Of a stretch of DNA of 44,234 nucleotides, positions 1 through 44,234 are shown piece by piece; positions within the stretch are counted from its first letter, which is position 1; the number at the start of each line of letters is the position of its first letter. The notes under the pieces are model-generated. The model saw nothing but the letters and a program-made list of their open reading frames with translations, did no database searches and was not told the DNA's origin. Made by a program: the position numbers and the translations under genes. Source of the stretch: Escherichia phage vB_EcoS_CEB_EC3a; sequence record NC_047812.1; one strand, 5' to 3'.

Positions 1-89
1 CTAAGCTGACACGTAACGCCTGTAGCGCGATGTAAGCCAATGCCTATCGTTACGCTAGTTACGCGAAGCTACGCCCAGACTTACACTAT

Positions 90-345
90 AAGTGCCTAAT
101 ATATATATATATCTTCTTTCTATTATTATTATTATTATTAATATTATTGTATGTAAGTCATGTAACAGGGGTCCTGGCGATATCTATATGTTTTTTCCTA
201 TCAGTTATAGCCGAGGCTATAATTTAGGGTATGGTGGGGGTGTTTTGGGGATGTTTGCATCGTTACACGCACGACACGCTACTCACATTGAGCTATAGCT
301 GGGCTGGCATGCCATTTCACGTAACGACCCCCAAAAGTTACCAAG
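90..345. promoter_or_regulatory. AT-rich block (copy A) with (TA)n, (TTA)n and ACGTAAC/GTTACG repeats; homologous to 26480-26760
   Basis: Shared ACATTGAGCTATAGCTGGGCTG (287-307 vs 26677-26698), shared ACGTAACGA, TCATGTAAC and TTATTATTATTA runs; no convincing ORF. Confidence 0.55.
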
Positions 346-413
346 AATTACACTTGACTACACGTGTAAGTCGGGATATTATGGACTCAACTTAAACGAG
401 AGGAGTGATAGAG

Positions 414-4661: not shown

Positions 4662-4739
4662 GCTCTGCTAGCTCAACAGGACAGCAGCAACGACCTTCTA
4701 AGTCGTAGGTTACTGGTTCGAATCCAGTGCGGAGCGCCA
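4662..4739 (+). tRNA. tRNA-Arg (anticodon TCT), CCA encoded
   Basis: Manual cloverleaf: acceptor GCTCTGC/GCGGAGC, anticodon stem ACGAC/GTCGT with loop CTTCTAA, T-arm ACTGG-TTCGAAT-CCAGT, discriminator G + CCA. Confidence 0.8.
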
Positions 4740-4745
4740 AATTAA

Positions 4746-4847
4746 CGTCGCGTTGCTAATGTTGGTTAAAGGGTGGAGCTTATACCTCCATAAAGCAATC
4801 TCCAGATAAGAGATGTAACGCAGGTTCGATTCCTGCCGCGACGACCA
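4746..4847 (+). tRNA. atypical tRNA-like gene (102 nt), possibly tRNA-Ile (anticodon GAT) with ~24-nt hairpin inserted in D-loop; CCA encoded
   Basis: Perfect 7-bp acceptor CGTCGCG/CGCGACG, canonical T-arm GCAGG-TTCGATT-CCTGC, anticodon-like hairpin ATCTC-CAGATAA-GAGAT, extra hairpin TGGAG-CTTATAC-CTCCA at 4774-4790. Confidence 0.5.
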
Positions 4848-4862
4848 ATAAAGGAGTTCATT

Positions 4863-5045
4863 ATGTGGGATGTGAAGTTGTCCATTCGCTTAATGGGCCG
4901 CTCGTGCAAGAATTGCACTCAAGATTATATCGCGTCAGTTGCCGCAATCAGCGCTGAGGATGCGGTAGCGAAAGTAAAGGATATGTCAGGCGCTGACCCT
5001 GACACCCACAAATTCCTGGTAGCTTACGTTCGTGAGCAAAAGTAA
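4863..5045 (+). CDS. hypothetical protein
   Basis: ORF with AAGGAG RBS right after tRNAs. Confidence 0.55.
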   Translation: MWDVKLSIRLMGRSCKNCTQDYIASVAAISAEDAVAKVKDMSGADPDTHKFLVAYVREQK

Positions 5046-5680: not shown

Positions 5681-7246
5681 ATGTCTTTAGTATGGGAAGA
5701 AATGACCATTCAGGAAAAGATGGCCGTTAAGGCGATATCAGAACACAGCTTCGAGGGTTTCCTTCGTTGCTGGTTCCAGATTACACAAGGCGAGCGATAC
5801 ATCCCTAACTGGCATCACAAGTACTTGTGCAGAATCATTGATGAGATTATCGCAGGAGATCGCAAGGACACCATCATTAACATAGCACCAGGCAGCGGAA
5901 AGACGGAAATTGCCTCAATCCACTTCCCGGCCTATTCGATGGTTAAGCTTAGGAAGGTGCGCAACCTTAACATCTCTTTTGCTGACTCCCTGGTTAAGCG
6001 TAACTCGAAGCGAGTACGTGACCTTATCAAGTCTCAAGAATTTCAGTCACTCTGGCCATGCAAATTTGGCACCTGCAAAGACGATGAGCTTCAGGTTCTT
6101 GATGAGAGTGGCAAGGTTAGATTTGAGTCAATATCAAAGGCGGCTGGAGGCCAGATTACTGGCGCTCGCGGTGGGTACATAACCGAAACATACAGCGGAG
6201 CCGTTCTTTTGGATGACTTTGACAAACCCGCAGATATGTTATCAGCAGTGTACCGCTCGAATAATCACGTAATGCTTAAAAATACGATTCGCTCACGTCG
6301 AGCCAGTTCTGTAAAAGGCAAAGCGACACCAATCATTTCGATACAGCAGCGGCTTCACGTCAATGACTCAACCTATTTCATGATGGAAGGCGGCATGGGT
6401 ATCGAATTCGATTTGATTAAGATACCAGCATTAGTTACTGAGGATTACCTAGACACACTACCTGAATGGATTAAAGAACAGTTTGAAGAGGATGTCCTTA
6501 GTAGTGAATACATAGAGCGCGATGGAGTAAGGTATTACAGCTACTTCCCTAAAAAGGAGTCAGTCAATGACTTGGTTGCGATGTGGGATAGTGACCCTTA
6601 CACCTTCCTTAGTCAGTATCAACAAGAACCAGTAGCTCTAGGTGGCAACCTTATTAACGTAGATTGGTTCCAGCGCCTTAGCGACACGTTCAGACCTCCA
6701 GCTAAGTACGATTATAGATTTATAACTTGCGATACAGCTATGACTACAAAAAGTTATAGTGACTTCTCTGTCCTTCAATTGTGGGGTTATAAAGATGCTA
6801 AGATTTACCTTATTGACCAGCGCAGGGGGAAATGGGAAGCGCCCGAGTTAGAGGCAGAGTTAATCGATTTCGAGAAGAAATCAAGGGCAACCAGTCAATC
6901 GGATGGTATCCTCCGAAAGATTATCATCGAGAAGAAAGCATCTGGAATCGGACTCATTCAATCAGCAAGTCGAGTCATGAGAACGCCAGTGGAACCTTAT
7001 GTTCCTGATAATGACAAGTTAACAAGGGTGATGAGTGCGCTGCCACAGATTAAGGCTGGTAACGTAGTTCTTCCTGAGTCTGCGCCGTGGTTAAGCGGAT
7101 TGCTTACTGAGATTGCGGCATTTACCGCTGACGACAGCCATAATCACGACGACCAAATTGATACCATGACAATGGCTATCAACCTGGTTCTGAACATTGC
7201 GGATGATCCTAAGTCGAGACTGATGCGCATAGCGGGAATGAAATAG
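5681..7246 (+). CDS. terL: terminase large subunit
   Basis: 521 aa; Walker A-like APGSGKTE near N-terminus; C-terminal nuclease-like acidic region; precedes portal. Confidence 0.85.
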   Translation: MSLVWEEMTIQEKMAVKAISEHSFEGFLRCWFQITQGERYIPNWHHKYLCRIIDEIIAGDRKDTIINIAPGSGKTEIASIHFPAYSMVKLRKVRNLNISFADSLVKRNSKRVRDLIKSQEFQSLWPCKFGTCKDDELQVLDESGKVRFESISKAAGGQITGARGGYITETYSGAVLLDDFDKPADMLSAVYRSNNHVMLKNTIRSRRASSVKGKATPIISIQQRLHVNDSTYFMMEGGMGIEFDLIKIPALVTEDYLDTLPEWIKEQFEEDVLSSEYIERDGVRYYSYFPKKESVNDLVAMWDSDPYTFLSQYQQEPVALGGNLINVDWFQRLSDTFRPPAKYDYRFITCDTAMTTKSYSDFSVLQLWGYKDAKIYLIDQRRGKWEAPELEAELIDFEKKSRATSQSDGILRKIIIEKKASGIGLIQSASRVMRTPVEPYVPDNDKLTRVMSALPQIKAGNVVLPESAPWLSGLLTEIAAFTADDSHNHDDQIDTMTMAINLVLNIADDPKSRLMRIAGMK

Positions 7247-10568: not shown

Positions 10569-10586
10569 TAGCCAAGACATATAAAG

Positions 10587-25544: not shown

Positions 25545-25606
25545 GTTTCGTTTCGATGTGGTAATAGTATCGAATCCTTGCGATCAGTGTTTAGCAATTA
25601 GTGCTA
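25545..25606 (-). promoter_or_regulatory. palindrome-promoter module, minus strand (TAGCACTAATTGCTAAA; -10 TACTAT; leader TTACCACATCGAAACGAAAC)
   Basis: Reverse complement of 25545-25612 matches module; palindrome TAG is stop of Rha-like gene. Confidence 0.6.
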
Positions 25607-26251: not shown

Positions 26252-26315
26252 TTTCATCTCTCTTTGGTTTTGTGATACGAAATTTTCGTAGCACAAGCAG
26301 CACCATTGCCGCCAT

Positions 26316-26366
26316 GCGCCTAAATATAACTAAAGATAGTCAGTTGTCTTTAGCAATTAGTGCTAT
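26316..26366 (-). promoter_or_regulatory. palindrome-promoter module, minus strand (TAGCACTAATTGCTAAA, -10 TATATT)
   Basis: Reverse complement shows palindrome 22 bp upstream of TATATT; upstream of Rha-like gene. Confidence 0.5.
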
Positions 26367-26379
26367 TTATCGCCAATTT

Positions 26380-26760
26380 CACCATAAATCACGGTTACAC
26401 GTAACCGATGTAACTCTATGTATACAATATCATCCGCGGAAAATGATATACGCGCTGTTACGCCAATTTACGCATTGGTTACATTAAAATATCTATATAT
26501 ATCAACCTTTTACTCTTATTATTATTATTATATATATTACTGTGTATATCATGTAACTACTTCTATAGAGTGTTCCGGTTATAATTTTAATATCATGTGG
26601 ATTTATACAGTATTGCGTGGCAACTATACCAACGCACCCTCAGCCAGGAATGGTATACACGATATACACGACGGTTACATTGAGCTATAGCTGGGCTGAG
26701 GTGCCCAAAAACGTAACGAGAGCTAATACCTACACGGAATTACGAGGATTCACACGTAAC
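26380..26760. promoter_or_regulatory. divergent regulatory region; AT-rich block (copy B) with ACGTAAC/GTTAC repeats including palindrome GGTTACACGTAACC
   Basis: Homologous to 90-345; palindrome at 26393-26406; (TTA)n and (TA)n runs; no convincing ORF. Confidence 0.55.
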
Positions 26761-26853
26761 TTTAAGTCAACGATTGGCAAAACCAATTGGACTTGTTGCG
26801 ATGCCGAATATATAGTTACCTCATCGAAAGCAAGCAACCAGAGAGATATAGAA

Positions 26854-27048
26854 ATGACCTACTACATTATCAAAGAGAAAAACAATGCACTGTTCGGCGA
26901 CTGCTACTTTGGCGGGCCTGCTGGATACACCACAGATAAGAATGAGGCAGACCGATTCGATACCAAAGAAGAAGCCAGAGATGTTCTGACCGGGTACTTC
27001 ACTGAGGAAGATTTGAAGTCTGTTAAAGTGGTTAAGGTCAAGGGGTAA
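26854..27048 (+). CDS. hypothetical small protein
   Basis: ORF preceded by TATAGTTACCTCATCGAAAG leader and AGAGAG RBS. Confidence 0.55.
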   Translation: MTYYIIKEKNNALFGDCYFGGPAGYTTDKNEADRFDTKEEARDVLTGYFTEEDLKSVKVVKVKG

Positions 27049-43978: not shown

Positions 43979-44004
43979 ATCTATCTCCTCGTTTTGATGA
44001 GTTA

Positions 44005-44049
44005 ACTATATCCTCCATGACCCACAATGTCTTTAGCAAAAAGTGCTAT
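44005..44049 (-). promoter_or_regulatory. palindrome-promoter module, minus strand (TAGCACTTTTTGCTAAAG, TATAGT, leader TTAACTCATCAAAACGAGGAG)
   Basis: Reverse complement matches module family. Confidence 0.6.
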
Positions 44050-44057
44050 TCGTTAGA

Positions 44058-44152
44058 TTTATTGATTGTTGCATATATTGCAATGATTATCATGACTATT
44101 GCACATATGGCAATATTGCTTCAGATGCAATGATGTTTTTGATTGTTGCGAA
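44058..44152. repeat. cluster of short TTGCA/TGCAAT and GATTGTTGC repeats upstream of rightmost minus-strand module
   Basis: GATTGTTGC at 44064-44072 and 44141-44149; ATTGCA-type motifs repeated 4-5 times. Confidence 0.45.
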
Positions 44153-44234
44153 AAGTGAAATGAAGTTGGGAGTGAGTGAATGAAAGATGGATGGACTACC
44201 ATACAAGTTGATTTTGATTCCCGCTGAGCCATTT

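Follow-up and report, generated by a model that had tools for sequence, protein, structure and literature searches.

An AT-rich region accompanied by iterons is the typical anatomy of a replication origin (PMC2777425). In iteron origins such as lambda ori and those of iteron plasmids, short phased repeats lie by an AT-rich unwinding region, are specific to the replicon and stand beside the replication genes. The lytic Bacillus phage SPP1 carries two homologous origin-type regions, oriL and oriR, far apart in one genome; oriL is embedded in the initiator gene, and its role differs from that of oriR. Both are bound by one origin-binding protein (PMC3485210). Satellite phage P4 has the same short repeat in two cis regions, ori and crr. 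Its alpha protein carries a winged helix C-terminal to the helicase (PMC2777425). As analogies only, inverted sets of short repeats flank the melting region in the origins of SV40 large T antigen and papillomavirus E1, and a trinucleotide-periodic tract lies in the unwound DNA of oriC, next to its DnaA boxes (the DnaA-trio). Although T1 belongs to the seven classic T phages, to our knowledge its origin of replication has never been located. Analyses of TLS (PMC11447400) and SU57 (PMC7718038) sought an origin and identified neither one nor any origin-type repeats. Here we describe two related intergenic blocks, A and B, in the 44,234-nt sequence of Escherichia phage vB_EcoS_CEB_EC3a (NC_047812.1; the whole stretch is called the window below), which appear to be the best candidates so far for the unmapped replication origins of this phage family. 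We assign a probability of about one half to the reading of A and B as dual origins, each composed of iterons and an unwinding element.

A preliminary description of the window had reported a patchy homology of ~260 bp between the two regions. The homology is real, with a local alignment score of 46 against 12.5 ± 1.8 in 300 dinucleotide shuffles (z = 19) and a maximum of 15 against random genome segments, but its extent had been understated: positions 9–372 and 26393–26768 align as collinear short identical patches with diverged spacers between them. Masking the low-complexity AT core leaves z = 18, so that the similarity goes beyond AT-richness, and A and B are paralogous blocks. The shared features named in that description were largely recovered where it had placed them. 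The (TA)n and (TTA)n runs lie in both cores, the further patches TCATGTAAC (158–166 and 26549–26557), ACGTAACGA and AATTAC occur in both blocks, ACGTAAC/GTTACG copies are found at 11–17, 49–54, 58–63 and 320–325, and both blocks stand upstream of plus-strand gene arrays in large divergent intergenic regions; the identical 22-mer is indeed present twice, its copy in A beginning at 285 rather than spanning 287–307. These motifs are concentrated in the blocks. All three copies of ACACGTAAC and both copies of CATGTAAC in the 44 kb fall within them, and the two genome windows richest in YGTAAC/GTTACR are those of B and A, with nine and six copies per 450 bp where 0.63 is expected.

From left to right the blocks follow one plan (Table 1). 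It starts with outer sites (ACACGTAAC and (A/G)TGTAA(G/C)), a spacer and a set of phased GTTACGC-type repeats that lead into the core, which consists of (TA)n, a short run of pyrimidines and (TTA)4-6; beyond the core come TGTAAG/TGTAAC sites, a stretch of ~100 nt with little conservation, a right module and a sigma-70 promoter. The phased set comprises three or four direct repeats per block, with starts 9–12 bp apart and in opposite orientation to the outer sites, and the TGTAAG/TGTAAC sites beyond the core are in turn inverted relative to it. GCGTAA/TTACGC and CGTAAC are enriched in A and B alike, and the outer sites of A align with ACACGTAACCGATGTAAC of block B, in whose spacer the palindrome TCCGCGGA has its single occurrence in the genome. 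The right module holds, in order, ACACG repeats, the 22-mer with its AGCTATAGCT palindrome, CGTAAC, AATTAC and ACACGT..TAAGTC. The 10-bp palindrome varies symmetrically in relatives (AGCTATAGCT, AGCTATGGCT, AGCCATGGCT), and is limited to Braunvirinae, being absent from T1, TLS, Rogue1 and Sf12; we read it as a putative auxiliary site for a dimeric protein and not as the core of the element. The B core also contains an exact match, TATCAACCTTTTA at 26500–26512, to the IHF consensus (WATCAANNNNTTR), one of two genome-wide; the B copies of Braunvirinae keep it, and A lacks it.

The cores are the most easily melted DNA of these genomes. By nearest-neighbour duplex energy in 60-bp windows, the A core (window from 96) has a dG of -54.2 kcal/mol and the B core (window from 26479) one of -56.1 kcal/mol, against a genome mean of -80.9 (standard deviation 4.7) and a third-ranked site at -63.9. 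The same holds in each of the seven reference genomes compared, which span four subfamilies (the window, Rtp, DTL, T1, Sf12, Rogue1 and TLS): the A and B cores rank lowest in duplex stability genome-wide, at -53 to -60 kcal/mol against a mean of about -81 (standard deviation ~5) and a third-ranked site at about -64. Each genome thus has exactly two outlier cores, and this is true of T1 and TLS despite little or no BLAST similarity of their DNA to the window blocks. A survey of IMG/VR, anchored on the helicase for A (loci with a full 6-kb upstream flank) and on RecE for B, found a core upstream of the helicase operon in 48/50 loci and upstream of recE in 75/76, mostly ~350 bp 5' of the gene in the latter case; the minimum of the whole locus was located there in 50/50 and 76/76, respectively. 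A (TTA)n/(TAA)n run of at least three units is present in 32 of 48 A cores and 48 of 76 B cores, with one elsewhere in 447 kb.

The flanking repeat differs by lineage, yet is common to A and B of one genome. It reads CGTAAC/TACACG in the window and DTL, TGTAAC/GTGTAAC in T1 and GTGAAC(A) in TLS, GGTAAGAT in UViG_2974663830_000001 and GAAACA in UViG_3300007747_000001, while in UViG_3300048919_000084 it is GGGACAA, with ~10 copies per block in an identical layout of two sites, core and two inverted sites. In sampled DNA, 19/20 GGGACAA and 14/14 GTAAGAT copies were limited to the blocks. For 6-mers with three or more copies in the sequence flanking the A core, recurrence per 6-mer is 1.62 in the B flanks of that genome and 0.47 in those of other clades; the k-mer set is noisy, because the A flanks include the A-only palindrome array. 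That the repeat drifts from phage to phage on a shared host, with A and B remaining matched, argues that its binder should be encoded by the phage rather than be a host factor. Sites of LexA, OmpR and CpxR were compared by eye and dropped, since the repeat differs among E. coli phage lineages.

More distant relatives, found through helicases 38–53 % identical to that of the window and compared at the helicase-side block alone, retain the common plan immediately 5' of the helicase operon, where the repeat is GGTAACA, TTCGCCC or TGTAAG; one carries four phased GGTAACA and another at least ten TTTCGCCC. The block abuts the replication module in these phages, and its position therefore fits an origin. 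In L142 (helicase 38 % identical) a (CAA)13 microsatellite at 6393–6425 replaces the AT core, with at least 12 TGTAAG/CTTACA around it, and the block immediately precedes a contiguous helicase-primase-helicase-recE module. A tree built from the left module together with the core places A and B copies in separate clades, so the duplication is old; the A locus of Rtp holds a B-type copy, hence A and B can replace each other. Two database records are interrupted at these sites: that of Shigella phage Sf12 (L008) breaks within the (TA)n tract of block A, with ~256 bp repeated at both ends, and that of JK06 was opened at the left edge of block B, reflecting either assembly breaks at low-complexity cores or real ends. 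Scanning IMG/VR with a 19-mer returned the window itself and one fragment and nothing else; a metagenome scan with the 14-mer TGAGCTATAGCTGG, a pattern too short for the purpose, gave 120 loci, none of them related to the window phage.

Three genes may encode the protein that reads the repeats. The DUF3987 helicase, whose AlphaFold model (predicted local distance difference test score, pLDDT, 89.6) matches MCM2-7 subunits in Foldseek at E = 3e-6, ends in a winged-helix fold of about 80 residues (446–527); the best match of this domain is the MCM4 chain of the human replisome, followed by cullin, kleisin, forkhead and E2F structures at template modelling (TM) scores of 0.5–0.7. Across lineages the helicase varies most at its N-terminus and in the winged helix, in a manner that does not follow repeat type cleanly. 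The Cro-like helix-turn-helix (HTH) protein is an alternative, with homologues annotated in T1, TLS, Rtp, DTL, Rogue1 and Sf12 and conservation in all Drexlerviridae examined. The third candidate is DUF7174, whose gene comes first on the right side of A. Sequence searches of the helicase and the HTH protein against the PDB returned nothing significant. The Rha-like protein, which had been put forward as a shared regulator, is an unlikely common binder, because its gene is not conserved to the left of B: the gene in that place encodes a lipoprotein, a membrane protein or Cor in Rtp, DTL and T1.

Of the three functions proposed in the preliminary description, an origin with iterons is favored by the phased inverted repeats, by the most meltable cores and by repeats that are shared between A and B and confined to them; dense sites in two clusters, arranged as inverted, helically phased sets around the most meltable DNA, correspond to the typical anatomy of an origin and to the layout of viral initiator-helicases at theirs. 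We envision that a phage-encoded, sequence-specific protein, namely the winged-helix C-terminus of the DUF3987 helicase, the Cro-like HTH protein or DUF7174, would bind the 6–7-bp repeats (YGTAAC/GTTACGC in the window phage), which lie in inverted sets phased at ~10 bp to the left and right of the (TA)n–(TTA)n core. Binding, together with negative supercoiling between the divergently transcribed early operons, would melt the core, as supercoiling generated by transcription could be expected to favor, and the phage helicase and primase with host Pol III would then begin bidirectional synthesis. The right module (ACACG repeats, 22-mer palindrome and promoter) would be an auxiliary and early-promoter region specific to Braunvirinae. 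The two copies would serve as alternative or cooperating origins, as SPP1 oriL and oriR do, and packaging would start at a separate array beside A. A bolder version, which strikes us as a long shot, has the MCM-like helicase loading itself head-to-head on (TTA)n, with its own winged helix reading the lineage-specific repeats, so that A and B would be paired self-contained origins. If this were true, no separate initiator or loader would be needed, and the system would be a bacterial-virus counterpart of archaeal and eukaryotic MCM loading combined with a single-strand code like that of the DnaA-trio; the two copies would then cooperate, for example one in early theta and one in recombination-dependent replication.

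Set against the described systems, the blocks combine familiar traits in a different geometry. Iteron origins have direct iterons of ~19–22 bp on one side of the unwinding region, whereas the repeats of A and B are 6–7 bp long, inverted and on both sides of the core; unlike lambda-type origins, the blocks also lie outside any initiator gene, and a homology search revealed no similarity to plasmids or E. coli chromosomes. The likeness to SPP1 is one of layout, two homologous regions far apart in one lytic genome; host and replication genes are unrelated, and A and B are both intergenic where oriL is within the initiator gene. The P4 alpha protein and the DUF3987 helicase both carry a winged helix at the C-terminus, but alpha is a fusion of primase, SF3 helicase and winged helix, whereas the window helicase is MCM-like and its primase is a separate gene (Pfam). 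The window repeat YGTAAC differs from the P4 type I iteron, TGTTCACC, which the GTGAACA/TGTTCAC repeat, present in the TLS lineage alone, resembles. As for oriC-type features, there is one 8/9 DnaA-box match in B and none in A, and GATC is missing from both intergenic regions; (TAA)n fits the loose DnaA-trio pattern.

Several observations weigh against an origin. Both blocks head early or DNA-metabolism operons, with right ends that overlap sigma-70 promoters, and an operator or enhancer role accounts for these positions equally well. GC skew and cumulative skew track gene orientation and carry no origin signal, common descent or gene conversion, instead of co-evolution with a protein, could account for part of the motifs that A and B share, and two origins are unusual for a 44-kb genome. 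On the protein side, the winged-helix matches of the helicase are generic (E >= 0.03), the origin-binding domain of P4 alpha (1ka8) does not appear in the top 50 Foldseek matches, and the winged helix is near-identical in the window phage and Rogue1 though their A-block repeats differ. Since the blocks end in promoters on the right, the origin and operator readings could both hold.

Duplicated transcription control is the main rival explanation. The repeats would then be operators or enhancers through which a regulator encoded by the phage, such as the Cro-like HTH protein, times the early and DNA-metabolism operons, and the AT core would supply an UP-element, curved DNA or promoter DNA. This promoter/operator proposal, also made in the preliminary description, holds for the right-hand end of each block; as an account of the whole we judge it possible, though rather unlikely. 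Its attractions are the location of both blocks at operon heads between promoters, the conserved sigma-70 promoter with ACACGTGTAAG in its spacer that overlaps the right end of A, a promoter-like TTTACT-18-TATATT within the B core, the symmetric variation of the 22-mer's palindrome, which resembles that of dimer operators, and the promoter annotated under the match in GenBank records of the AHP24 type. However, the repeats are not dispersed across promoters but sit at two sites, with 6 to more than 10 copies over ~400 bp, and the many other promoters of the genome use a 21-nt ATAGCAC..TTGCTAAA repeat instead. The most conserved part, the left module plus core, is ~200–300 bp upstream of the mapped promoter-like sites, and an operator has no need of a symmetric inverted layout around the single most meltable site or of a conserved trinucleotide tract. 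In TLS, moreover, block B is not between divergent genes. That discrete motif copies are conserved while spacers have diverged, and that motif identity changes by lineage while the architecture is constant, indicates selection for recognition by a protein. The same pattern speaks against a recombination or structural hotspot, in which cruciforms or slipped structures of the (TA)n/(TTA)n tracts would serve a RecE/Erf pathway of recombination-dependent replication or concatemer formation, or the blocks would be gene-converted remnants of a duplication with no dedicated binder. We consider this improbable, even with B immediately upstream of recE-erf-ssb, the A/B exchange seen in Rtp and the breaks of the Sf12 and JK06 records at cores or blocks.

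A cis-acting RNA transcribed from the block (a leader, a small RNA or a nut/put-like antiterminator) could be imagined from the two same-orientation copies upstream of long operons with many terminators (families D5 and D9). It is the least credible of the alternatives: RNAalifold on 18 A and B right modules predicts nothing beyond a 3-bp hairpin (-1.1 kcal/mol on one strand, -2.6 kcal/mol on the other), neither block has an Rfam match at E <= 1, and the central part of the block shows little conservation. The complementary strand of the 22-mer holds no tRNA-like element. Packaging is the remaining function in the preliminary description; that the block is a pac site or part of one, recognized by the small terminase, seems very unlikely. 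The T1 and Rtp records start in the A intergenic region, several records and the window start within ~50 nt of window position 1, and a PhageTerm end with an abrupt coverage change was reported for SU57 in the same untranslated region (PMC7718038). These starts, however, lie in or beside an array of TTGC-N6/7-GCAA palindromes outside the shared block (at 44069, 44099 and 44116, with a degenerate fourth), which is found beside A and not at B, ~18–26 kb away. The idea of a pac site therefore fits A's neighbour and not the duplicated block, which is present twice per genome where a pac site is expected to be single-copy, and whose copy B is as conserved as A. Older restriction work on T1 reportedly indicates a single pac series. 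Restriction data indicate the same for TLS (PMC11447400). The array, conserved from Rtp-like phages to T1, is probably a different element that serves as the packaging site: position 1 of the T1 record lies within the homologous array, from which a 2800-bp terminal repeat is annotated, position 1 of the Rtp record likewise, and the window, ZL19 and Rao1 records begin within ~50 nt of the array's right edge. A palindrome GACCGATTGGTC(TAG), in tandem in the A region of TLS (L141) and also at 5040–5065 of L143, replaces the array in position and may be the pac equivalent in those lineages.

The analysis thus yields base-pair coordinates for two candidate origins with a family-wide architecture and testable predictions, set apart from a distinct candidate pac element. 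If confirmed as origins, the blocks would provide a short cis element with which T1-like phages and phagemids could be engineered, together with a natural series of co-evolving repeat and protein specificities.

Judged by its sequence, the window is a complete Rtp-like Drexlerviridae genome in circularly permuted form. Compared by BLAST with the phages in GenBank, both regions gave matches in Drexlerviridae (T1-like siphoviruses) alone, among them vB_EcoS_UALMA_PCEc3, AugustePiccard, DTL, Rtp, Rogue1 and Sf12, and the genes follow the same order as in Rtp. In PQ314493 the final bases of the window continue directly into its opening bases, and copy A therefore lies inside a single divergent intergenic region. 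On one side of A, leftward small open reading frames (ORFs) precede the DUF3987 helicase; on the other, the rightward DUF7174 gene is followed by small early genes, the terminase and the structural array. Block B has the Rha-like gene at its left and an operon of a 64-aa ORF, recE, erf and ssb at its right.

Table 1. Positions of the blocks, their parts and associated features in the window.
Feature	Position	Strand	Remarks
Intergenic region around A	43979..44234 + 1..413		669 bp; divergent
Intergenic region around B	26297..26853		557 bp; divergent
Block A, complete shared block, paralogue of B	9..372	+	pairwise alignment; kept in 9 relatives
A outer sites: ACACGTAAC 9-17, ATGTAAG 30-36	9..36	+	(nearly) invariant in A alignment
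A phased iteron-like repeats: GTTACGC 49-55, GTTACGC 58-64, GCTACGC 68-74, CTTACAC 80-86	49..86	-	start spacing 9, 10, 12; kept in A alignment
A core: (TA)7, CTTCTTTC, (ATT)6	98..148	no strand	least stable duplex of the genome
A core-proximal inverted sites: ATGTAAG 151-157, CATGTAAC 159-166	151..166	+	opposite to 49-86
A right module: GTTACA 262-267, ACACG x2 (265-269, 274-278), 22-mer 285-306, ACGTAACGA 319-327, GTTACC 337-342, AATTAC 346-351	260..351	+	
22-mer ACATTGAGCTATAGCTGGGCTG	285-306 and 26677-26698		both blocks
Palindrome AGCTATAGCT inside 22-mer	291-300 (A)		
Sigma-70 promoter of A operon: TTGACT-17-TATTAT, ACACGTGTAAGTC in spacer	354..382	+	10/12 consensus match
Block B, complete shared block, paralogue of A	26393..26768	+	in 132 phage records; 12-phage alignment
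B outer sites: palindrome CGGTTACACGTAACCG 26392-26407, TGTAAC 26409-26414, TGTATAC 26419-26425, TCCGCGGA 26433-26440	26392..26440	+	nearly invariant across genera (12-phage alignment)
B phased iteron-like repeats: TATACGC 26447, GTTACGC 26457, TTTACGC 26468, GTTACAT 26478	26447..26484	-	spacing 10, 11, 10
B core: (TA)n, CAACCTTTTACTC, (TTA)4-5, TATATAT	26485..26545	no strand	second least stable duplex
B core-proximal inverted sites: TGTGTATAT, CATGTAAC	26541..26557	+	
B right module: TATACACG x2 (26654, 26663), GTTACA 26674, 22-mer 26677-26698, ACGTAACGA 26711-26719, AATTAC 26738-26743, ACACGTAAC 26752-26760, TAAGTC 26763-26768	26654..26768	+	
Promoter of small-ORF/recE/erf/ssb operon: TGGACT-17-TATAGT	26788..26816	+	9/12 match
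DUF3987 MCM-like AAA+ helicase, C-terminal winged helix	40729..42312	-	Pfam; candidate partner (inferred)
Cro-like HTH protein, 157 aa	33594..34067	-	alternative candidate binder; Pfam P22_Cro E=3.9e-6, below gathering cut-off; phrog_2856
TTGC-N6/7-GCAA palindrome array, A-specific, outside shared block	44066..44165		candidate pac / small-terminase site
ORFs overlying blocks	92-298, 231-395, 26418-26690, 26617-27048		rtp46-like proteins in some records

Several GenBank records carry ORFs over the blocks that appear to be mis-annotated. The frame 26617–27048 across the B right module was rejected as coding: its variable sites are distributed 26:32:19 over the codon positions, with no third-position excess, against 6:4:30 in the real 64-aa ORF, and it is interrupted by stops in DTL, ES, TH21, p111 and 50EP. 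The ORFs in this place (26617–26853; rtp46 and homologues in BEK1-1, TR2 and AugustePiccard) appear to be N-terminal over-extensions of the 64-aa gene at 26854–27048.

The -35 element of the A promoter is invariant in 8/9 aligned A copies, the exception being Rogue1 A; ACACGTGTAAG lies in its spacer, most of the repeats lie 200–350 bp upstream, and the DUF7174 gene downstream has its ATG at 414. At B, the -10 element and leader of the promoter belong to repeat family D1, and the gene begins at the ATG at 26854. A leftward promoter of the 21-nt type marks the left end of each intergenic region. This repeat, ATAGCAC-N3-5-TTGCTAAA, occurs on the plus strand at 1411, 1914, 2368, 3088, 3262, 3828, 7243, 14312, 28016, 32075, 34080, 36581 and 38916 and on the minus strand at 25587, 26346, 42366, 43199 and 44029. 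Where downstream sequence was displayed (families D1–D4, D6 and D7), TATAGT(TACC) and a conserved leader follow ~25–30 nt after it; the repeat, listed as unexplained in the TLS paper (PMC11447400), resembles a promoter class specific to the phage, whose -35 region carries the inverted repeat TAGCA..TGCTA. Closely similar terminators with a GC stem and T run (families D5 and D9) punctuate the late operon at 10583, 14283, 15308, 20828, 24289, 29216 and 40364, several of them directly 5' of a promoter of the 21-nt type, a layout that matches the 'transcripton' arrangement described for T1. Finally, a tRNA-Arg(TCT) gene at 4662–4739 is directly followed by a 99-nt tRNA-like sequence at 4746–4844, which scores 41 bits in Rfam with no ARAGORN call and may be a degenerate or insert-containing tRNA.

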